A model generated the notes under the pieces. It saw only the letters and a list, made by a program, of their open reading frames with translations. It was not told the DNA's origin and made no database searches. From Naegleria gruberi (taxonomy: Eukaryota), in NCBI GenBank assembly GCA_000004985.1, contig GG738886.1: DNA of 64,000 bases, one strand, 5' to 3'. A program made the position numbers and the translations under genes. Within the stretch, counting starts at the first letter, position 1; each line of letters opens with the position of its first letter. Of this stretch, positions 26,761-64,000 are shown piece after piece.

Positions 26761-26833
26761 GGGGTCTTGGCGCAGTCGGTAGCGCGTAGGTCTCATAATC
26801 CTAAGGTCGTGAGTTCGATCCTCACAGACCCCA
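26761..26833 (+). tRNA. tRNA-Met (anticodon CAU), elongator type
   Basis: 73-nt cloverleaf. Acceptor stem GGGGTCT/AGACCCC with discriminator A. D stem GCGC/GCGC. Anticodon loop CTCATAA has CAT at positions 34-36 with U33 and A37. T arm GTGAG-TTCGATC-CTCAC. The G1:C72 pair argues for elongator rather than initiator. A T5 run directly downstream acts as a Pol III terminator. Confidence 0.85.
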
Positions 26834-46501: not shown

Positions 46502-48468
46502 TTATTTCATTAGAGAATCAATGCATTCTTTGAGAACTAATTTGTGGATTGGCTTTGTGAGTAGTTGATCAAAGAGTGGTGATTTCTCTATCAATACATC
46601 TCCTGTCAACGCTACAACCTTAATATCTCCTTGATGTCTATTTCTAAGAATTTTGGTTGCTTCAACTCCATCTAGAACTGGCATATTCTATAAAGAAATA
46701 TATTATTTTCTTTTAATTTAAAAGAAACTTACCAAATCTGTAATAATAAGCTTGTGCCTTCCCTTATCAAATAGTTCAATTAATTCTTTTCCGTCATTGG
46801 CAGCATCTACAGAATAACCAAGACTTTCAATAAGTTTTGTAATGACTCTCCTGTTCACAGAATTGTCATCAGCAATTAGAATTTCAGCTTTCGAGTTGCT
46901 TGCCTTATTTTGACAGCAAGTTGAAAAGAGACGAATATAATTTTCTTGAATGGCTAGTTGTCTCTTGATGGAAGGATCAATTTCGTGTAAAGATTCGCTA
47001 CTATTCTTACTTCTCTCTAATTTGCATTGTACAATTTCCAAAGGAAGAATTACAGTGAATTCTGCTCCACAATTTTCATCAGATTCCAATGTAATATCTC
47101 CTCTCATGGCTTGAACATTGTGTTTTACAGTTGAAAGTCCTAATCCACTCCTTTTTAAAGGATTAAAAAATGTTTAAGCTACATCTATACGTACCCAGGA
47201 ATGATTGACTGATTCAAATTATGTAACTGTGCAAAAGGTTCAAATATTTTGGCTTGTTTTGATTTTGGAATGCCAATTCCGTTATCTTTCACTTTGAAAA
47301 TGATATCTCTTTCAATAACTCCATTCACCTGTCGTTCATCTCCTTGGACAAAGCATTCCAAATCGATGGAATCTCCAATTTTTGATGCCTTTACGCCATT
47401 GGTCATAAGATTTGATATTACTTGATGTATTCTAGTTTGATTAGCTCTCACAAAGAGGTCTTTCGCTTGTTCATCAATTGAGACGTTCACATTGACTTGA
47501 AATTGTTTCGAATAACTCTTAATGATATTTCCCATCATTTTCACACAGTTATTCAAACTAAATATTTTGAAAAACTTGGTAGCCTCTGAAGATTTATCAT
47601 CTGACTTCTTTTCATGTTCAATTTTCACAAGTGTCAGAACATCCTCAATAAGATTGAGTAAAATTCCATCCGAGGAGGCAATTGTCTCAACTAACTCTCT
47701 TTGATATTCTGTTAGATTTGTCTCTCTCAACAATTCAACACTTCCCAAACTACTCAAACAAGGAGATCTAAACTCATGACTGATATGGCGAATAAAAACT
47801 TCCTTACTTGACAAGGCCATTTCTAACTCCTTTGCTGTTTGTTCCAATTTTGTTATTTTTGATTGGAGAGCTGAGGATGTTGACAATACATAATAGCTCA
47901 ATAAATAAATACACAAAGCAGTTGCCAAATTCTCGAATATTAACTCTATCGAATTCGAAAAGATCAAACTATGAACTATTGTTCCACAATATAAGAAAAA
48001 TGTTACAAAGAATGGAGCCAACGTATAATGCAATGAAGTCATCGTGTTTGATGACATGAGTATCAAAATATACATTGGAGAAAGGAGAGCCCGATTATCT
48101 GCCACCAAGAAGTACCTAAAACAAAACAAGAGCAATGAAACAGTCATTCTAACCTTTTCCTCTGCCTCTGTAGATCTCACAAGGCCCACTCCAAGCATGG
48201 AACGAATAAATTTTCCATTCACTATAACTCCAAATATAATACTACTCGTCATGATGATTAAATGTTGCCATCCCTTACAAAATGAATAAGCAATCAGAAG
48301 GGCATACTCCATTATTAGTACTTTTAAAATTACGTTATCCTTCATAGGAAGCGTAAGTACATGTTTAAAGAAGGGTCTTAGTCTCGGATGTAAACTATCA
48401 TATATTGCTTGATCCTCCAAATCCAAGGCAAATCCTCTCAAGGGATCCACTACTAATTTTCCCACCAT
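46502..48468 (-). CDS. Hybrid histidine kinase: N-terminal TM region, HisKA, HATPase_c, and a C-terminal receiver domain. Three exons: 48468..47195, 47150..46733 and 46687..46502
   Basis: H box ISHEFRSPC. G1 motif KVKDNGIGIP. G2 is reconstituted across intron 1 ([14 protein letters not shown]), with a GTACGT donor and a 44-bp intron. Receiver motifs ILIADDNSVNRR...[17 protein letters not shown]...LTKP are joined across a 45-bp GTAAGT intron. CDS length is 1878 nt, in frame (625 aa). Confidence 0.8.
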
Positions 48469-53078: not shown

Positions 53079-56000
53079 ATGATGATCAAAACGACAGAGT
53101 TGAGATCGATATTAGTATCCGCATTATTATTCTTCTTCTTGTTAATCATAGTATTTTGTGGATCGATATTTGGGTTGAGTGGATTTACTTTCGATCAGGA
53201 TGCATACAACAAGATTTGGAATGATGAAACGGAAATTTGGTTTGGTCAATCGACAGCTCTTACAGGTCAAACTAAAGAGTGAGTAATCTTTTCTCCAATT
53301 ATTATAATGATGTAAAGACTAGGATATCCAATGATGACAGGAGTTCAGGCAGCCTTTAAAGAAATCAATGAAAATTCTGGTGGAGTTTGGGGAGGTAAAA
53401 AACTGAGGTTAATTACATTGGATGATGGTTATGAGCCAGCTAGAACTGTAAATAATACGATTCAGCTCATTAATAATAACACAATATTTGGATTGATTGG
53501 ATATATGGGGACAGGTACTTCGCAAGCTGCATTTCCATATCTTACTGAATCAAAACTTCCATTTATTGGTGCATTCACGGGAGGATTGTTTTTGAGAACA
53601 CCTTTTGTTTCTAATATTGTGAATATTAGAGCTAGTTATCAAGACGAAACTGTAGCTATGGTAGAATATTTAGTTACAGTAAAAATGGTGAGGAGAATTG
53701 CAATCTTTTATCAGAATGATGCATTCGGCATGTCAGGGGTTGATGGTTCTAGTTTGGCATTGACGGCTCTTGGAATGAGTTTAGTTTCAAGAGGTTCTTA
53801 TGAAAGAAATACTATTGTTGTCGCGAAGGCAGTTTCAGATATTGTTGCTGGAAATCCACAGGCAATTATCTGCATGTCAACATACAAACCAACATTGGAA
53901 TTTATCAATACAGTCAAGAATAGGACAGATTTTGACCCAAACATTGTTTTCATGACTGGCTCTTTTATTGGTTCTAATATTTTACCATACAGAGATAGTG
54001 TTGTCATTACTCAGGTATTACCTCCACCAACCAACACAAAATACCCAATTGTTCTAGCCTATCAGAGAGCTATGAAAGCATCCAATCCAAATTTCGTGCC
54101 TTCCTATGTGGAATTGGAAGGATACATTGCTGGAAAGATGGCAGCAAATATATTGACTCAAAGAGTTTCTGGAGATTTGACACGCAGTAATTTTCTTCAA
54201 CTTGTCTATTCCACTAGTACCTATATTATTGATAATCAAGTTATTGGACCGTACAAGCAATGTAGCTCTTCTAGATCCTTGCATTACTTTTTTGATGATC
54301 CTCAAAATCAAGATGCCTTTCTCTATCCAGTTTTACAACCACGTACAAGATTGATACCACGAAAAATTGAATCAACATTTGTTGCGCCTTGCTCTTGTAA
54401 TCAAGGTTTGAGATCTATTTGGAAAACTTCTCAAAATGCTGATAGTTCATTTAGTGAAATTTCAGATCCAATGGTTTGGGATACTACTAGTACTACTAAT
54501 TATACCTGCTTCTATGATCCAACAAAGACTCTCCCACCAATTGTATTTGGACACATATCATCTGGAGATAAGTATGATGAAGATTTTCTAGTTGGAGTGT
54601 TATTAGCATTCAACGAAAAAAACAATCAAAAAGGTATACGTGGAAGCGTGCTAAGAATTCTCACAAAAACCCCATCCAATAGTTCTGCTTCTGCCCTTAT
54701 TGATACAGTTAATTTGTTGAAAAATGATTTTAATGTACTTGGAATTTTGGGTGGATTTTTACCAAGTTCTAGTTATGCTCAATTCGTAGATCAGTTTAAA
54801 ACTCAATTACCTAACACATTGTTTCTATCGCCTTCCACATCATATGACTCTCCAACATTGAGAAGTGTATTTTCTCCAAATATTATTCATATTGGATTAT
54901 CTATTCGTGAAAAGTTGGCCACCTTTTTCGATTTTGAAATGAATGCAAATGGGCATTCCAGATTTTCTGTAGTATATGGTAAATCCACTGAAGGGGCAGC
55001 AGATTGTAAAGAGTTCAAGAACCAATTGAGCCAATTTGGATTAACTGTTGAGAGTGAATATGAACATTCATCATCTGTTACAGATTACAAGTTAGTCACA
55101 CAAGCACTTGTTTCAAATGATGGTAACCCTCAATCTGTTGTTGTTCTACTTCCTGAAAATATATCCTCATTCTCTTATTTGAGTACTGTAATCAAGGGTA
55201 TTGTGAATATTGGAAAGAGAGATGACTTGTCAATATTCTTTTTGTACTTTAAATATACATCTTGGGTGGCAGATGTTTTTAACTTGATGGCTAGTCTTAA
55301 TACCAAAAATAATGTATATCTTATTCAAAGATATCCTCATGTTGTGGACACTCAATTACCTTTAGTTGCAGCTTACAATAATTTGTTCAGCAAGTATTAT
55401 TCTTCTTCTGTTTCTACAACTGGATCTTTAGAAGGTTTTTTGGCTGCAAGCTTTTTAATTGAAGTTTTGGAGAATATTTCTCCATCTGCAGATATTAATG
55501 GACCAAGTACAATTTTCACAATTTACCAAACGCAACAATTTTTGAAATATTCCATTCCATTTGGTAATTTCATTAGTAATTCTTGCAATTTGGGCATGAG
55601 AACAACCTATTTGTACAAGCTGGACGGATCGACCTTTACAAATGTCAAAATTCAATCATTTGACAAGACTAAATGTGGTCTTTCAGAAGATATTTTTTCC
55701 TCTGAAAGTTCCATTGAAAAACAACTTTTATTTGGTAGATTACTACCCGTGGAAGATGCTTCACTTCCATATGATGATTTTAGTGTTGGTTTGAATGCAT
55801 TATTCACATCTTATAACACTAAGGGAACACTGGATACTGCAACTTTGCACTTAAAAACTCTGTACTATTCAAGCAGAGAGGAAATGACCAAGAAGGCAGA
55901 GGAGCTCATTCTAAAATACAAAATTTTTGGATTTTTAGGATCTAGACTAGTCTATGATGTTACTGAACTCAAGGCTATAATGGAAAATTACAAGATACCA

Positions 56001-57752
56001 ATTATAGGTCCACTTTCTTCTCAGTTAGCTTTGAGAGAACCTTACTCAAGGTTTGTGGTCAATTTAAGACCTAGCATTGTTGAGGAATCTGTAGTTTTGA
56101 CAAGATATCTGACCTCTGTTATTACCTCAAGAAAACCAACAGTTCTCATTCTCAGCGGATCATCTTACTATTGGCAGCAAAATAGTAATAATGTTGTTTC
56201 ATTTTATTCGAAGAGTATTGAAGGAGTTTCGATTTCATCAACTAGTATTTCGTCAGTCTCTTCCACTTCTGGTAGAGCTGTAGAAGGTTCTAAGCCAGAC
56301 TTGGTTCTTTTGTTGGCCTCTCCAACAGAAGTTTCACAATTTCTAACCAACTATCCCACTTTTTCCTCTCTAATTGGAATACCTTCAGAAATTTCATCTA
56401 TTTCTAGTTTCAAAACACTCTTAAATGATATACCTTCTTCAGTAATAATTAGTCCTCAATTTTTAGAAAGGTATGATAAGGCTTCATCAACAAACTTTAT
56501 GGCCAGAGATTTCTTGATAGACATGGCCAAATACTCAACCTCATCAAATACCTCCACACTAATGTATGAAGCTTATGCAGTGGGTTATATGACAACAACT
56601 GTTCTCAAGTTCATGTCCCAAGCCAATATGGATTATAGCAGAGAAAAATTTGTTTCCACATTTTTCGAGAGGTCTGTATTTGAATTAGGAAATAATGAAT
56701 TTGGACCGTATGGCGATGAGTGCTCCATACAATCCACTTTTGTAGTGAAAGGCTCTTGTGAATCTGTTTCTGTTTGTAATTGTAGTCAAGGCGTGAGAGC
56801 TCTTCAAATCAATTCTCTAACCTCATCCTCGGATAGTATTTTATATGAAATGAATTTCAAAACATGTGGATTGCAAGCTATTGAACCACTTCTTTCAGAT
56901 GGAGCCATTGCTGGTGTTGCTGTTGGGGGTACACTAGCTTTTTTAGGTACTCTATTTGTTATACTAGTACTGATTTTCTGTGCAAGAAATAGATCCTCAG
57001 TTAAGAATGCTCCCAAGTCAGGAAATATCACTTGTGCATTTACGGATGTTCAAAGCAGTACAAAACTTTGGCAAAATAATGAAAAGGCTATGAGAAATGC
57101 ATTAGAAATTCATGACAAGATTATGAGGAAAAATCTTGAATTATTCAGAGGTTATGAGGTCAAGACAAATGGTGATAGTTTCTTTGTTGCCTTTAAGGAT
57201 CCATTTGATGCTGTTTTATGGTCTTTAACAGTTCAATTAGATTTATTGAATGCGAATTGGCCTTCAGAATTATATCACGAATATGATTGCAGACAGGAAT
57301 GGGATGAACGAATCAAGAAACCTTATTGGAGTGGATTGAGAGTGAGAATTGGACTTCATTACGGAAAGGGAGATTGCAAATGGGATAAAACCATGAAACG
57401 CTTCGACTATTTTGGAACAGTTGTAAACAAGTCAGCACGTATTGAAGCATTAGCACATGGAGGACAAGTTTTGATCAGTGAAGAATTATTGGAAGTAACT
57501 AAAGACCTCTTCCAAGATGTTAAGAAAATAGCCAGTTGTGATGAATTTCCAGCCTATCAAACCACTACAAAAGAGGAGAAGAAACTAGCTGTGGACGACA
57601 AAACCTCAACAACAGCTAGTCTCAAACATCAAAATTCTCTCTCTAGTGTATTGGGTAGGAGAAGAACTAAAATTCTAATTGATAGAACATTCACAGCCGC
57701 TGAGTTGGGAGTTTATCCATTGAAGGGACTATCTGAATCGAGCAGACTTTTC
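53079..57752 (+). CDS. Receptor-type class III adenylate/guanylate cyclase: signal peptide, two tandem periplasmic-binding-protein type 1 (ANF-receptor-like) ectodomains, one TM segment, and a cyclase catalytic domain. Two exons: 53079..53278 and 53318..57752. The 3' end is lost in a 50-N gap
   Basis: Exon 1 (MMIKTTELRSILVSALLFFFLLIIVFCGSIFG...GQSTALTGQTK) carries the start of a PBP1 fold. It ends GA|GTGAGT, with a 39-bp intron, and continues ELGYPMMTGVQAAFKEINENSGGVWGGKKLRLITLDDGYEP. A second PBP1-like unit begins near FGFLGSRLV... The TM segment is IAGVAVGGTLAFLGTLFVILVLIF. Cyclase motifs are FTDVQSSTKLW, KTNGDSFFVAFKD, RIGLHYG, FGTVVNKSARIEALAHGGQVLISE and ELGVYPLKGL. Confidence 0.8.
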
Positions 57753-57802
57753 NNNNNNNNNNNNNNNNNNNNNNNNNNNNNNNNNNNNNNNNNNNNNNNN
57801 NN
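57753..57802. other. Assembly gap (50 N) immediately after the cyclase catalytic domain
   Basis: A run of n characters in the sequence. Confidence 1.
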
Positions 57803-58976
57803 TTAGTATTACAGAACTTTGACAACCTTCAAACTCAATCAAATTAGCAAATAATCTATTTATATAAATTGAAACCCTGCTATGTGATGTATACATCAAT
57901 GTTACAAATAATTGTTTGTTGGATATATTTCTCTATGTAATATATTGAGTTTGATTGAATACTGTCAATAACAACACTATTAAACTGTTAAAAGGGACCT
58001 ACATTTTATTTGATAATATCATTTATCTATGTATTATATCGACAAATACCTGGTATCATGATTATATTTTCTATATTTTCAATTTGGGAAATGTCGCAAT
58101 GTCAGTACTTAATTGAAATATTGCCATAATACCAATTATTGATTATATATCATGAAACTGATATTATAGACTTTATTTGATGTATATATGAATATATGAT
58201 TGAAATATTTCAATTTTGACTTTTCTTAATGACATGGGTAGTTCACTAAGGTAGTCACTTTGCCATATGACAACTATCTAAGATGATATTGAAATCATTC
58301 TAAAATTGATATTATGAGAGTATTTGATGATTACAACATGATGAAAATGAAAAGGAATTAATTATTACAATATTTGACATGTAAGAATGTTACCTTTGAT
58401 CAATTGGATAAGTAGCTTGACAGACATTCCAATTATATAGATATTGATTTCTATTACTCAGATACTTTACAAATATCATTTATAAGAGTAGTGGTATATT
58501 CTGTTTTTTTATACTTCTTGATATTGACTTGTCATAATATCATGAGTAATTGCTTACATGGTTAAATGACATGTATACTGAATGATGTCCAAATGATATG
58601 AAATTGATAGGAACCTCTTTATATGATGTTTATAACATATTGTATCAATTTGGTATTGAATCTCATTGATCTTAGGGAACTCTCCTATTAAATTTTGTAA
58701 AATCAATATTTACCTTCCTATGGCACCATTTCTAATTATTATGATATGAAATTGAATTCTACATCATTATATATCATCTAAATCATTATGGTAAAGTTTC
58801 AATAGTGGTTCTTTTTCAAGATTTCATCCTTTTCATCATAGTTGACTATGTTTGATTGAGTTAAGAAATCTGTAAACATGAAAGTTAAAATAAATTTGAT
58901 ATTCGATGTTTACTCATCAAGTGGAACATTTTCATATTAGGATTCAATATGTTTTGATGAGAAACTCAAAAGTTAT

Positions 58977-59364
58977 GGGGTTTGGGGTTGGGTTTGGGTT
59001 TGGGTTTGGGTTTGGGTTTGGGTTTGGGTTTGGGTTTGGGTTTGGGTTTGGGTTTGGGTTTGGGTTTGGGTTTGGGTTTGGGTTTGGGTTTGGGTTTGGG
59101 TTTGGGTTTGGGTTTGGGTTTGGGTTTGGGTTTGGGTTTGGGTTTGGGTTTGGGTTTGGGTTTGGGTTTGGGTTTGGGTTTGGGTTTGGGTTTGGGTTTG
59201 GGTTTGGGTTTGGGTTTGGGTTTGGGTTGGGTTTGGGTTTGGGTTTGGGTTTGGGTTTGGGTTTGGGTTTGGGTCTGGGTTTGGGTTTGGGTTTGGGTTT
59301 GGGTTTGGAATTGGGTTTGGGTTTGGGTTTGGGTTTGGGTTTGGGTTTGGGTTTGGGTTTGGGT
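58977..59364 (+). repeat. Telomere-like tandem hexamer array (TTTGGG)n, about 64 units. The G-rich strand runs 5' to 3' toward the window end and abuts an N gap
   Basis: Direct reading gives ggggtttggggttgggtttgggtttggg... with a few variant units (GGGTTG, GGGTCT, GGAATT). It is preceded by about 1.1 kb of AT-rich ORF-free sequence (57823..58976). Confidence 0.8.
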
Positions 59365-62300
59365 NNNNNNNNNNNNNNNNNNNNNNNNNNNNNNNNNNNN
59401 NNNNNNNNNNNNNNNNNNNNNNNNNNNNNNNNNNNNNNNNNNNNNNNNNNNNNNNNNNNNNNNNNNNNNNNNNNNNNNNNNNNNNNNNNNNNNNNNNNNN
59501 NNNNNNNNNNNNNNNNNNNNNNNNNNNNNNNNNNNNNNNNNNNNNNNNNNNNNNNNNNNNNNNNNNNNNNNNNNNNNNNNNNNNNNNNNNNNNNNNNNNN
59601 NNNNNNNNNNNNNNNNNNNNNNNNNNNNNNNNNNNNNNNNNNNNNNNNNNNNNNNNNNNNNNNNNNNNNNNNNNNNNNNNNNNNNNNNNNNNNNNNNNNN
59701 NNNNNNNNNNNNNNNNNNNNNNNNNNNNNNNNNNNNNNNNNNNNNNNNNNNNNNNNNNNNNNNNNNNNNNNNNNNNNNNNNNNNNNNNNNNNNNNNNNNN
59801 NNNNNNNNNNNNNNNNNNNNNNNNNNNNNNNNNNNNNNNNNNNNNNNNNNNNNNNNNNNNNNNNNNNNNNNNNNNNNNNNNNNNNNNNNNNNNNNNNNNN
59901 NNNNNNNNNNNNNNNNNNNNNNNNNNNNNNNNNNNNNNNNNNNNNNNNNNNNNNNNNNNNNNNNNNNNNNNNNNNNNNNNNNNNNNNNNNNNNNNNNNNN
60001 NNNNNNNNNNNNNNNNNNNNNNNNNNNNNNNNNNNNNNNNNNNNNNNNNNNNNNNNNNNNNNNNNNNNNNNNNNNNNNNNNNNNNNNNNNNNNNNNNNNN
60101 NNNNNNNNNNNNNNNNNNNNNNNNNNNNNNNNNNNNNNNNNNNNNNNNNNNNNNNNNNNNNNNNNNNNNNNNNNNNNNNNNNNNNNNNNNNNNNNNNNNN
60201 NNNNNNNNNNNNNNNNNNNNNNNNNNNNNNNNNNNNNNNNNNNNNNNNNNNNNNNNNNNNNNNNNNNNNNNNNNNNNNNNNNNNNNNNNNNNNNNNNNNN
60301 NNNNNNNNNNNNNNNNNNNNNNNNNNNNNNNNNNNNNNNNNNNNNNNNNNNNNNNNNNNNNNNNNNNNNNNNNNNNNNNNNNNNNNNNNNNNNNNNNNNN
60401 NNNNNNNNNNNNNNNNNNNNNNNNNNNNNNNNNNNNNNNNNNNNNNNNNNNNNNNNNNNNNNNNNNNNNNNNNNNNNNNNNNNNNNNNNNNNNNNNNNNN
60501 NNNNNNNNNNNNNNNNNNNNNNNNNNNNNNNNNNNNNNNNNNNNNNNNNNNNNNNNNNNNNNNNNNNNNNNNNNNNNNNNNNNNNNNNNNNNNNNNNNNN
60601 NNNNNNNNNNNNNNNNNNNNNNNNNNNNNNNNNNNNNNNNNNNNNNNNNNNNNNNNNNNNNNNNNNNNNNNNNNNNNNNNNNNNNNNNNNNNNNNNNNNN
60701 NNNNNNNNNNNNNNNNNNNNNNNNNNNNNNNNNNNNNNNNNNNNNNNNNNNNNNNNNNNNNNNNNNNNNNNNNNNNNNNNNNNNNNNNNNNNNNNNNNNN
60801 NNNNNNNNNNNNNNNNNNNNNNNNNNNNNNNNNNNNNNNNNNNNNNNNNNNNNNNNNNNNNNNNNNNNNNNNNNNNNNNNNNNNNNNNNNNNNNNNNNNN
60901 NNNNNNNNNNNNNNNNNNNNNNNNNNNNNNNNNNNNNNNNNNNNNNNNNNNNNNNNNNNNNNNNNNNNNNNNNNNNNNNNNNNNNNNNNNNNNNNNNNNN
61001 NNNNNNNNNNNNNNNNNNNNNNNNNNNNNNNNNNNNNNNNNNNNNNNNNNNNNNNNNNNNNNNNNNNNNNNNNNNNNNNNNNNNNNNNNNNNNNNNNNNN
61101 NNNNNNNNNNNNNNNNNNNNNNNNNNNNNNNNNNNNNNNNNNNNNNNNNNNNNNNNNNNNNNNNNNNNNNNNNNNNNNNNNNNNNNNNNNNNNNNNNNNN
61201 NNNNNNNNNNNNNNNNNNNNNNNNNNNNNNNNNNNNNNNNNNNNNNNNNNNNNNNNNNNNNNNNNNNNNNNNNNNNNNNNNNNNNNNNNNNNNNNNNNNN
61301 NNNNNNNNNNNNNNNNNNNNNNNNNNNNNNNNNNNNNNNNNNNNNNNNNNNNNNNNNNNNNNNNNNNNNNNNNNNNNNNNNNNNNNNNNNNNNNNNNNNN
61401 NNNNNNNNNNNNNNNNNNNNNNNNNNNNNNNNNNNNNNNNNNNNNNNNNNNNNNNNNNNNNNNNNNNNNNNNNNNNNNNNNNNNNNNNNNNNNNNNNNNN
61501 NNNNNNNNNNNNNNNNNNNNNNNNNNNNNNNNNNNNNNNNNNNNNNNNNNNNNNNNNNNNNNNNNNNNNNNNNNNNNNNNNNNNNNNNNNNNNNNNNNNN
61601 NNNNNNNNNNNNNNNNNNNNNNNNNNNNNNNNNNNNNNNNNNNNNNNNNNNNNNNNNNNNNNNNNNNNNNNNNNNNNNNNNNNNNNNNNNNNNNNNNNNN
61701 NNNNNNNNNNNNNNNNNNNNNNNNNNNNNNNNNNNNNNNNNNNNNNNNNNNNNNNNNNNNNNNNNNNNNNNNNNNNNNNNNNNNNNNNNNNNNNNNNNNN
61801 NNNNNNNNNNNNNNNNNNNNNNNNNNNNNNNNNNNNNNNNNNNNNNNNNNNNNNNNNNNNNNNNNNNNNNNNNNNNNNNNNNNNNNNNNNNNNNNNNNNN
61901 NNNNNNNNNNNNNNNNNNNNNNNNNNNNNNNNNNNNNNNNNNNNNNNNNNNNNNNNNNNNNNNNNNNNNNNNNNNNNNNNNNNNNNNNNNNNNNNNNNNN
62001 NNNNNNNNNNNNNNNNNNNNNNNNNNNNNNNNNNNNNNNNNNNNNNNNNNNNNNNNNNNNNNNNNNNNNNNNNNNNNNNNNNNNNNNNNNNNNNNNNNNN
62101 NNNNNNNNNNNNNNNNNNNNNNNNNNNNNNNNNNNNNNNNNNNNNNNNNNNNNNNNNNNNNNNNNNNNNNNNNNNNNNNNNNNNNNNNNNNNNNNNNNNN
62201 NNNNNNNNNNNNNNNNNNNNNNNNNNNNNNNNNNNNNNNNNNNNNNNNNNNNNNNNNNNNNNNNNNNNNNNNNNNNNNNNNNNNNNNNNNNNNNNNNNNN

Positions 62301-64000
62301 NNNNNNNNNNNNNNNNNNNNNNNNNNNNNNNNNNNNNNNNNNNNNNNNNNNNNNNNNNNNNNNNNNNNNNNNNNNNNNNNNNNNNNNNNNNNNNNNNNNN
62401 NNNNNNNNNNNNNNNNNNNNNNNNNNNNNNNNNNNNNNNNNNNNNNNNNNNNNNNNNNNNNNNNNNNNNNNNNNNNNNNNNNNNNNNNNNNNNNNNNNNN
62501 NNNNNNNNNNNNNNNNNNNNNNNNNNNNNNNNNNNNNNNNNNNNNNNNNNNNNNNNNNNNNNNNNNNNNNNNNNNNNNNNNNNNNNNNNNNNNNNNNNNN
62601 NNNNNNNNNNNNNNNNNNNNNNNNNNNNNNNNNNNNNNNNNNNNNNNNNNNNNNNNNNNNNNNNNNNNNNNNNNNNNNNNNNNNNNNNNNNNNNNNNNNN
62701 NNNNNNNNNNNNNNNNNNNNNNNNNNNNNNNNNNNNNNNNNNNNNNNNNNNNNNNNNNNNNNNNNNNNNNNNNNNNNNNNNNNNNNNNNNNNNNNNNNNN
62801 NNNNNNNNNNNNNNNNNNNNNNNNNNNNNNNNNNNNNNNNNNNNNNNNNNNNNNNNNNNNNNNNNNNNNNNNNNNNNNNNNNNNNNNNNNNNNNNNNNNN
62901 NNNNNNNNNNNNNNNNNNNNNNNNNNNNNNNNNNNNNNNNNNNNNNNNNNNNNNNNNNNNNNNNNNNNNNNNNNNNNNNNNNNNNNNNNNNNNNNNNNNN
63001 NNNNNNNNNNNNNNNNNNNNNNNNNNNNNNNNNNNNNNNNNNNNNNNNNNNNNNNNNNNNNNNNNNNNNNNNNNNNNNNNNNNNNNNNNNNNNNNNNNNN
63101 NNNNNNNNNNNNNNNNNNNNNNNNNNNNNNNNNNNNNNNNNNNNNNNNNNNNNNNNNNNNNNNNNNNNNNNNNNNNNNNNNNNNNNNNNNNNNNNNNNNN
63201 NNNNNNNNNNNNNNNNNNNNNNNNNNNNNNNNNNNNNNNNNNNNNNNNNNNNNNNNNNNNNNNNNNNNNNNNNNNNNNNNNNNNNNNNNNNNNNNNNNNN
63301 NNNNNNNNNNNNNNNNNNNNNNNNNNNNNNNNNNNNNNNNNNNNNNNNNNNNNNNNNNNNNNNNNNNNNNNNNNNNNNNNNNNNNNNNNNNNNNNNNNNN
63401 NNNNNNNNNNNNNNNNNNNNNNNNNNNNNNNNNNNNNNNNNNNNNNNNNNNNNNNNNNNNNNNNNNNNNNNNNNNNNNNNNNNNNNNNNNNNNNNNNNNN
63501 NNNNNNNNNNNNNNNNNNNNNNNNNNNNNNNNNNNNNNNNNNNNNNNNNNNNNNNNNNNNNNNNNNNNNNNNNNNNNNNNNNNNNNNNNNNNNNNNNNNN
63601 NNNNNNNNNNNNNNNNNNNNNNNNNNNNNNNNNNNNNNNNNNNNNNNNNNNNNNNNNNNNNNNNNNNNNNNNNNNNNNNNNNNNNNNNNNNNNNNNNNNN
63701 NNNNNNNNNNNNNNNNNNNNNNNNNNNNNNNNNNNNNNNNNNNNNNNNNNNNNNNNNNNNNNNNNNNNNNNNNNNNNNNNNNNNNNNNNNNNNNNNNNNN
63801 NNNNNNNNNNNNNNNNNNNNNNNNNNNNNNNNNNNNNNNNNNNNNNNNNNNNNNNNNNNNNNNNNNNNNNNNNNNNNNNNNNNNNNNNNNNNNNNNNNNN
63901 NNNNNNNNNNNNNNNNNNNNNNNNNNNNNNNNNNNNNNNNNNNNNNNNNNNNNNNNNNNNNNNNNNNNNNNNNNNNNNNNNNNNNNNNNNNNNNNNNNNN
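59365..64000. other. Assembly gap (N run) to the end of the window
   Basis: A run of n characters. Confidence 1.

Follow-up and report, generated by a model that had tools for sequence, protein, structure and literature searches.

The Locus and Its Gene Model

The stretch of DNA considered here (the window) comprises 64,000 nucleotides of contig GG738886.1 from the heterolobosean Naegleria gruberi (assembly GCA_000004985.1), and the gene under study, which encodes a likely receptor-type adenylyl cyclase, lies on its plus strand close to a telomere-like array. The core of the locus is an uninterrupted reading frame of 4.4 kb (53331-57752), in a genome of 33% GC and in a window whose G+C content is about 29-38% when calculated in 2-kb segments. 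The combination of this frame with a short upstream exon yields a model of 1545 amino acids (aa), C-terminally incomplete, in which a signal-like N-terminus is followed by three modules of the type-1 periplasmic-binding protein (PBP) or Venus flytrap (VFT) kind, one transmembrane (TM) segment, a linker of about 10 residues and a class III cyclase domain (Table 1).

Table 1. Features of the receptor cyclase gene and of the adjacent chromosome end (positions refer to the 64-kb window; ORF, open reading frame; TRF, Tandem Repeats Finder)
Feature	Coordinates	Strand	Residues (aa)	Basis and remarks
Exon 1	53079..53278	+		ORF, sequence and hydropathy; carries the start codon, the signal-like stretch (aa 5-40) and VFT module 1's first strand, EIWFGQSTALTGQTKE
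Intron, 39 nt, GTGAGT...AAG	53279..53317	+		in-frame GT..AG join restoring the PBP N-terminal motif ...TGQTKELGYPMMTGVQAAFKEIN; inferred
Exon 2, remaining coding sequence up to the assembly gap	53318..57752	+		ORF; identical to P0001 over the shared part
VFT/PBP module 1, distal, intron-spanning	53220..54437	+	~48-440	Peripla_BP_6 E 2.6e-40, ANF_receptor E 2e-10
VFT/PBP module 2	54525..55622	+	~470-835	Peripla_BP_6 36.7 bits (cut-off 31.7)
VFT/PBP module 3, membrane-proximal	55710..56837	+	~865-1240	hhalign, AlphaFold model, Foldseek
Single TM helix	56904..56984	+	~1263-1289	only internal Kyte-Doolittle window >1.8; followed by a basic stop-transfer ARNR
Class III cyclase homology domain	57012..57752	+	1299-1545	Guanylate_cyc match; cut by the gap after ...LKGLSESSRLF
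Ser/Thr/Lys-rich low-complexity insert, ~64 residues	57504-57695	+	1463-1526	within the cyclase domain; preceded by the GGQVLIS helix region and followed by the last conserved strands, ...AAELGVYPLKGLSESSRLF
50-N assembly gap	57753..57802	.		final part of the cyclase domain and C-terminal tail missing here
AT-rich subtelomeric spacer, 1.17 kb	57803..58977	.		no ORF >=60 aa
Telomere array (GGGTTT)x64.7	58978..59364	+		TRF, 97% matches; G-rich strand 5'->3' toward the sequence end

The protein is already present in the NCBI database as 'predicted protein [Naegleria gruberi]' (P0001, 1444 aa), with 100% identity to our model over the shared 93%. This public version begins at an internal Met of exon 2 and lacks exon 1, so that it has neither the signal segment nor the first PBP strand (region 53079-53330), while its last residues, VDYV followed by a stop, are encoded at 58841-58855, on the far side of a spurious intron of about 1.19 kb (57642-58855 region) that spans both the assembly gap and the subtelomeric spacer. 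As read from the sequence, both ends of the public gene model are truncated, and its C-terminus is artefactual. With respect to the junction between the exons, the possible GT..AG joins between the two frames were enumerated, and five were found to be in frame and free of stops; one of the five, which corresponds to the intron at 53279-53317, regains the canonical start of a type-1 PBP (...EIWFGQSTALTGQTKELGYPMMTGVQAAFKEIN), and the homologous protein from Willaertia can be aligned straight over the exon 1/exon 2 junction (alignment including P0003). At the other end the gene runs into the 50-N gap, to which an earlier interpretation based on the letters alone (the sequence-only reading) had rightly attributed the loss of the C-terminus. 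After the RLF motif the homologues carry about 55-70 further residues, and downstream of the gap there are 14 open codons at most, which indicates that the gap probably hides more than 50 bases.

A Catalytic Domain with an Adenylyl Cyclase Signature

The C-terminal region matches the Pfam profile Guanylate_cyc (PF00211) between residues 1299 and 1462 with 85.6 bits (cut-off 21.9, E 4.1e-24), and its translation contains the motifs FTD, GDSF and ELGVYPLKGL. Class III cyclases employ two metal-binding aspartates, a pair of residues that specifies the substrate and a transition-state pair, and these functions correspond here to D1310 and D1353, to K1349 and D1430 (the ATP-specifying combination), and to N1437 and R1441, respectively. 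All six residues are present and are invariant in nine aligned full-length homologues. As the substrate-specifying positions are occupied by Lys and Asp, and not by Glu and Cys, the signature is that of an adenylyl and not of a guanylyl cyclase, and the product of the enzyme is probably cAMP, generated in response to an outside signal.

Among cyclase domains of solved structure, the closest are those of Trypanosoma brucei GRESAG4.3 (1fx4, E 1.8e-30) and GRESAG4.1 (1fx2, E 4.4e-29), the next-best being that of the mycobacterial Ma1120 (E 1.2e-11). In the trypanosomal enzymes the Delta-subdomain is a 36-residue insert made of two helices (PMC6027212). At the same position the Naegleria domain contains an insert of 22 residues, with the shared features W...Y.E[FY]...W.GLRVR, whereas Ma1120 has about 4 residues there.

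A second insert, of low complexity, is found late in the domain (Table 1), and the Willaertia homologue contains an equivalent but longer one. The possibility that aa 1463-1526 represent an unspliced intron was considered and rejected, as the segment is in frame, has a coding equivalent in Willaertia and is followed, also in frame, by the last conserved strands. The insert could constitute a phosphorylation or regulatory loop. With regard to the claims of the sequence-only reading, the catalytic domain that it described as apparently complete is indeed intact up to the gap, including the six catalytic residues, but its last strand(s) and the tail fall within the gap; the examination of the substrate-specifying residues, which it had proposed, gave the ATP type; and its choice of the trypanosomatid receptor adenylate cyclases as the relevant comparison proved to be the right one, in view of the GRESAG4 matches.

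An Ectodomain of Three Flytrap Modules

Kyte-Doolittle analysis of the 1545-residue model gave exactly two strongly hydrophobic segments, namely the signal-like aa 5-40 and the TM helix at aa 1263-1291, whose position is kept in the homologues. In the segment that leads from the membrane to the cyclase, neither the Pfam scan nor the hydropathy profile revealed a kinase-homology domain, a HAMP domain or a coiled-coil. When the whole protein was scanned, Peripla_BP_6 was matched in three stretches (E 3.2e-53) and ANF_receptor with E 2.6e-16. These scores, like that of Guanylate_cyc, are far above chance and, together with the hydropathy, they bear out the earlier assignment of the protein as a receptor-type class III cyclase with a signal-like N-terminus, a PBP-like ectodomain and a single TM segment. 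The profile PF25493, built for the PBP-like ectodomain of adenylate cyclases, reached 33.3 bits (cut-off 27.2) on the whole protein, through profile positions 277-331 only, and PF25495 gave 13-15 bits, under its cut-off.

The three modules differ in how easily they are recognized. Module 1 is the best conserved and matches the protein of PDB entry 4kv7 by sequence (E 1.4e-50), while module 3, when scanned alone, gives sub-threshold Pfam matches only (PF13458, 16.9 bits; PF25493, which falls to 25.2 bits). Profiles of the modules, built from Naegleria, Willaertia and a third homologue, were compared with hhalign: module 2 aligned to module 1 at 98.9% (E 3e-17) and module 3 to module 1 at 98.7% (E 4e-16), and pairwise profile-profile homology among the three ranges from 97.5 to 98.9% over 317-331 columns. 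An AlphaFold model of aa 68-1267, which starts within exon 2, has a mean predicted local distance difference test score (pLDDT) of 81 and contains three successive alternating beta/alpha domains, the blocks of module 2 being mostly at pLDDT 85-92. Modelled alone, module 3 reached a pLDDT of 80.6 and a predicted TM-score (pTM) of 0.83, and its top match in Foldseek was 4kv7, similar to the LIV-binding protein (E 4.6e-18, TM 0.72/0.79, 399 columns), followed by dozens of type-1 PBPs, AmiC, the N-terminal domains of glutamate receptors and, at rank 30, the hormone-binding domain of the atrial natriuretic peptide (ANP) receptor (1dp4). By sequence profiles and predicted structure, the ectodomain is composed of three complete PBP/VFT folds. 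An ectodomain of two modules only is ruled out by the hhalign homology and the fold match of module 3; of the 'two tandem PBP folds' initially proposed, the tandem arrangement stands and the count does not.

Each module is closed by a conserved Cys motif, which is CxCNQG in modules 1 and 3 and the single-Cys CNLG in module 2, and one more conserved Cys is found in the linker after each module (within T/K-C-G after modules 2 and 3). These motifs are compatible with a disulfide-stabilised extracellular stalk. As for possible binding sites, module 1 is only distantly related to its neighbours (324 residues aligned with module 2 at about 21% identity, and no more than a short C-terminal match to module 3), and its residues at the positions equivalent to the pocket of LivJ are those of bacterial 4kv7-like relatives, whereas modules 2 and 3 differ there. 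The equivalent of LivJ Glu226 is a Ser in module 1, which means that the pocket signature is not of the alpha-amino-acid type and that the class of ligand cannot be read off from it.

Outside the eukaryotes, the closest relatives of module 1 (P0010, P0226-P0270) are bacterial LIV-type binding proteins with 33-41% identity. Many of these bacterial proteins carry as fusion partner a Ser/Thr protein kinase, in Myxococcaceae, or else a PF14332 domain. Tandem modules of the same type occur in other protists as well: P0004-P0009, from Paulinella micropora and metagenomic eukaryotes, combine two or three module-1-type PBPs (26-35% identity) with the seven-transmembrane (7TM) region of class C GPCRs (G-protein-coupled receptors). 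With tandem PBPs on both cyclases and class C GPCRs, the multi-flytrap cassette is common to two outputs.

Relatives of the Receptor in Discoba

An exhaustive HMMER search, in which module 3, the TM segment and the cyclase domain together served as the query, retrieved 656 representatives at E<1e-30, which were scored with profiles of the four parts and whose names were looked up. Homologues in which two to four VFTs precede a cyclase domain were found in N. gruberi, N. lovaniensis, N. fowleri, Willaertia, Acrasis, Euglena and Rhabdomonas. They include a second N. gruberi gene with three modules and a cyclase (XP_002673284.1), the N. lovaniensis ortholog (P0075, 54% identity), a three-module protein from Willaertia magna (30% identity), one from Acrasis kona with apparently three to four modules, and a four-module protein from the euglenid Rhabdomonas costata. 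The Euglena gracilis relatives have two modules, of which the N-terminal one matches Peripla_BP_6 with E 1e-27 to 3e-32 and the membrane-proximal one is covered entirely by PF25493, which suggests Naegleria module 3 as the counterpart of the latter.

In a bootstrapped neighbor-joining (NJ) tree of the catalytic domains, calculated on 133 columns from a sample biased to matches of this query and devoid of amoebozoan and metazoan cyclases, the homologues and T. brucei GRESAG4.1 were set apart from the sampled bacterial cyclases (71/100), with a heterolobosean subclade at 68/100 and the N. lovaniensis ortholog joined to the N. gruberi gene at 100/100. The tree is thus supportive of the family placement, and does not decide it; it provides a crude version of the phylogeny that the sequence-only reading had called for, with the grouping with GRESAG4.1 as its outcome. 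The comparison with trypanosomatids rests on the catalytic domains in the PDB, the Pfam profiles PF25493 and PF25495 and the literature.

Receptor-type cyclases have been described as 'a hallmark of trypanosomatids', and most of them possess two VFT domains (Salmon 2018, PMC6027212). Their distribution was later extended to the free-living Bodo saltans (Durante et al. 2020, PMC7719234). In the literature that was searched, nothing was found that links Naegleria, Heterolobosea or Discoba to receptor adenylate cyclases or periplasmic-binding domains; the heterolobosean form with three VFTs appears to be undescribed, and the protein stands in the databases as an uncharacterised prediction. From the similarities presented above, we consider it likely that a Discoba-wide family of receptor adenylyl cyclases exists, comprising the kinetoplastid ESAG4/GRESAG4 proteins, and that the gene studied here is its heterolobosean member. 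Two statements of the sequence-only reading have to be abandoned in this context. The genome is not 'amoebozoan-like', given the 100% identity to an N. gruberi predicted protein and the TTTGGG telomere repeat (PMC3622300), but that of a heterolobosean, within Discoba; and tandem PBPs on a cyclase are not 'unusual', since most trypanosomal cyclases already carry two VFTs (PMC6027212). As Naegleria and the trypanosomatids both belong to Discoba, a receptor cyclase of the trypanosome type in this organism is phylogenetically unsurprising.

Comparison with Known Systems

The most extensive likeness is to the receptor adenylate cyclases (RACs) of kinetoplastids (T. brucei ESAG4/GRESAG4, the RACs of T. 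cruzi and Leishmania, and those of Bodo saltans), with which the Naegleria protein has in common the type I topology, a PBP/VFT ectodomain, one TM helix leading straight into one class III domain, a catalytic core that is 40-50% identical over the aligned region, the Lys/Asp signature for ATP, an insert at the Delta-subdomain position and, over a short part of the profile in the whole-protein scan, a match of the membrane-proximal VFT to PF25493. The differences lie in the number of VFTs (three, versus two in the trypanosomal enzymes; PMC6027212), in the length of that insert (22 residues versus about 36), in the additional low-complexity insert of about 64 residues late in the catalytic domain of the Naegleria protein, and in its free-living heterolobosean host. 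The kinetoplastid type further features a variable C-terminal tail of about 110 residues, placement in the flagellum and activation through dimerisation; in the Naegleria gene the tail falls within the gap.

The metazoan natriuretic peptide receptors NPR-A/B likewise cross the membrane once, presumably act as dimers and combine a type-1 PBP (ANF_receptor) fold outside the cell with a class III cyclase at the C-terminus; 1dp4 also figures among the matches of module 3 by structure. However, these receptors have one ectodomain module, a kinase-homology domain and a coiled-coil, and the Glu/Cys specificity for GTP, none of which is found in the Naegleria protein. The bacterial LIV-type solute-binding proteins (SBPs; cluster B, type 1, 4kv7-like) resemble module 1 in sequence and in the residues equivalent to the LivJ pocket, and all three modules in fold, although in Naegleria the module is triplicated and linkers with Cys residues join it to a membrane anchor and an enzymatic output, instead of an ABC transporter. 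Finally, the protist class C GPCRs (e.g., Paulinella micropora g62502, P0005-P0009) share two to three tandem module-1-like PBPs and the same C-terminal Cys motif region, at 26-35% identity, and differ in their output, which is a class C 7TM region and not a single TM helix with a cyclase.

The Chromosome End and Neighbouring Features

The cyclase gene is the last one before the telomere, as the sequence-only reading had correctly placed it, and the (TTTGGG)n array lies 1.2 kb downstream. The array is unique in the window, where the chance expectation is 0 matches, and contains a few variant units (GGGGTT, GGGTTG, GGGTCT and GGAATT); no further telomere-like arrays were found in the window besides that at 58978-59364. 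Since the rest of the window (59365-64000) consists entirely of N, the array stands at the end of the assembled sequence. TTTGGG had been proposed from genome data as the candidate telomere repeat of N. gruberi (Fulneckova et al. 2013, PMC3622300). The 2-kb composition window at 58001-60000 has 22% GC, a value affected by the fact that more than one quarter of it is N and that it includes the telomere array. In and beyond the spacer only short repeats at chance level were detected, and no subtelomeric repeat family can be defined from this single chromosome end. The suggestion that receptor genes of this kind had expanded in the subtelomeric region found no evidence either, as no paralog of the cyclase gene was found within the 64-kb window.

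Two other features of the window may be mentioned. On the minus strand, at 46718-48468, two adjacent ORFs resemble, when judged by eye, the parts of a single hybrid sensor histidine kinase with an intron between them; in their translation an H-box-like FIRHISHEFRSP, a region of ATPase type and, as a receiver-like element, ILIADDNSVNRRV can be made out. The only tRNA predicted in the window by ARAGORN is a tRNA-Met (CAT) at 26761-26833 on the plus strand.

Proposed Mechanism and Alternative Explanations

The observations described above can be integrated, in our opinion with good probability, by assuming that the gene encodes a type I membrane protein acting as a receptor-type adenylyl cyclase of N. 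gruberi, belonging to the Discoba-wide family. By analogy with known class III homodimeric enzymes, with the trypanosomal cyclases and with VFT receptors, the protein would act as a homodimer with two symmetric active sites, each formed by both catalytic domains, in such a way that D1310 and D1353 would be contributed by one chain and K1349, D1430, N1437 and R1441 by its partner. The similarity of module 1 to bacterial solute-binding proteins and the pocket residues that it shares with them led us to take it as the ligand-binding flytrap. The capture of a small ligand by this distal module may then alter the geometry of the ectodomain dimer, a change that would be relayed by the more divergent modules 2 and 3, taken as a stalk with a transmitting or dimerising role, and by the TM helices, to set the productive pairing of the catalytic domains. 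Under this model the TM helices and the very short linker would be the means by which the ectodomain dimer governs catalytic pairing, and the synthesis of cAMP would be raised or lowered as a result.

Several points weigh against this reading. In trypanosomal cyclases, the lack of an identified ligand and the response to acid and osmotic stress (PMC6027212) make ligand gating an assumption in the present case. The pocket comparison depends on an E. coli LivJ sequence whose numbering was checked against itself. Within the catalytic domain, the insert at the Delta-subdomain position is shorter than its trypanosomal, at best putative, equivalent, the low-complexity insert may affect the enzyme, and the last strand(s) are concealed by the gap, so that a complete domain is presumed. 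The join over the 39-nt intron is a prediction from the sequence, and the sampling bias of the NJ tree also has to be borne in mind.

The main rival among the explanations weighed for the mode of signalling is that the ectodomain is not a ligand receptor at all, but a sensor of stress (pH, osmotic or membrane) that operates through ligand-independent dimerisation or through release from an inhibitory state, as in trypanosomal cyclases. In its favour, those enzymes, which have no known ligand, respond to acid, hypotonic or proteolytic stress with a 10-100-fold activation (PMC6027212), and the pocket signature common to module 1 and the bacterial proteins has been lost from modules 2 and 3. Nevertheless, the retention of that signature in module 1, at 33-41% identity to bacterial solute-binding proteins, is difficult to account for unless binding is under selection, and the similar tandem modules on class C GPCRs of other protists represent an architecture normally used for ligand sensing. 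Stress sensing of this kind is consequently regarded as unlikely, although it deserves to be kept in mind.

Somewhat less probable still is a recent acquisition of module 1 through lateral transfer from bacteria, followed by its fusion with a two-VFT receptor cyclase of older date, which would account both for the extra module and for its bacterial likeness. The identity of module 1 to bacterial PBPs, several of which have Ser/Thr kinase fusions in Myxococcaceae, is far above its resemblance to modules 2 and 3, and the euglenozoan relatives carry two VFTs, all of which would fit such an event. Yet the N-terminal VFT of Euglena also scores strongly on Peripla_BP_6 and partly shares the pocket pattern, so that the family as a whole may have inherited a bacterial-like distal module from its ancestor, and the three-module layout common to Naegleria, Willaertia and Acrasis implies that any acquisition would be old.

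The proximity of the telomere (1.2 kb), the interruption of the 3' end by the assembly gap and the double truncation of the public model might raise the suspicion of a decaying subtelomeric pseudogene or an assembly artefact. This is very improbable: the locus is a real gene, with a 4.4-kb frame that is uninterrupted in a genome of 33% GC, with catalytic residues, conserved cysteines and domain boundaries all kept with respect to Willaertia at 30% identity, and with a clear N. lovaniensis ortholog (54% identity, bootstrap 100), while the truncations of P0001 follow from a short intron that was overlooked and from the spurious 1.19-kb intron placed over the gap. Least probable of all is a guanylyl cyclase of the natriuretic-peptide-receptor type, an identity evoked by the ANF_receptor match (E 2.6e-16), by the presence of 1dp4 at rank 30 among the structural matches of module 3 and by the single-TM receptor cyclase topology, and rejected on the substrate residues, Lys1349/Asp1430 being the ATP pair and not Glu/Cys, in agreement with the absence of a kinase-homology domain (the stretch from the TM helix to the cyclase is only about 10 residues long), with the trypanosomal adenylyl cyclases as nearest catalytic domains and with three PBP modules that fit Peripla_BP_6 better than ANF_receptor.

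Implications for the Receptor Cyclase Family

The known picture of how a receptor cyclase is built is not changed by this gene, and its importance is accordingly moderate. There is also a practical side, in that a public model without signal peptide and with an artefactual C-terminus would mislead automated predictions of surface proteins. The presence of this receptor class, with its catalytic residues intact, in free-living heteroloboseans would place its origin no later than the ancestor that Heterolobosea share with Euglenozoa, and argues for the sensing of environmental molecules, not of host factors. It can be tentatively proposed, as an idea with a slightly less than even chance of being correct, that flytrap receptor adenylyl cyclases were already present in the Heterolobosea-Euglenozoa ancestor and that a form with three flytraps has been retained by heteroloboseans, the pathogen N. 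fowleri among them, its bacterial-like distal module binding a defined, small nutrient-like molecule.

For the trypanosomal receptor adenylate cyclases no ligand has been identified, in spite of their roles in immune evasion, social motility and transmission. If the proposal were true, Naegleria would offer a free-living, culturable system for finding the long-sought ligands and the activation mechanism of this receptor class, with a distal flytrap that is close enough to bacterial solute-binding proteins for expression and screening. Naegleria fowleri, too, has members of the family, and the surface signalling proteins of this species are of interest to medicine.

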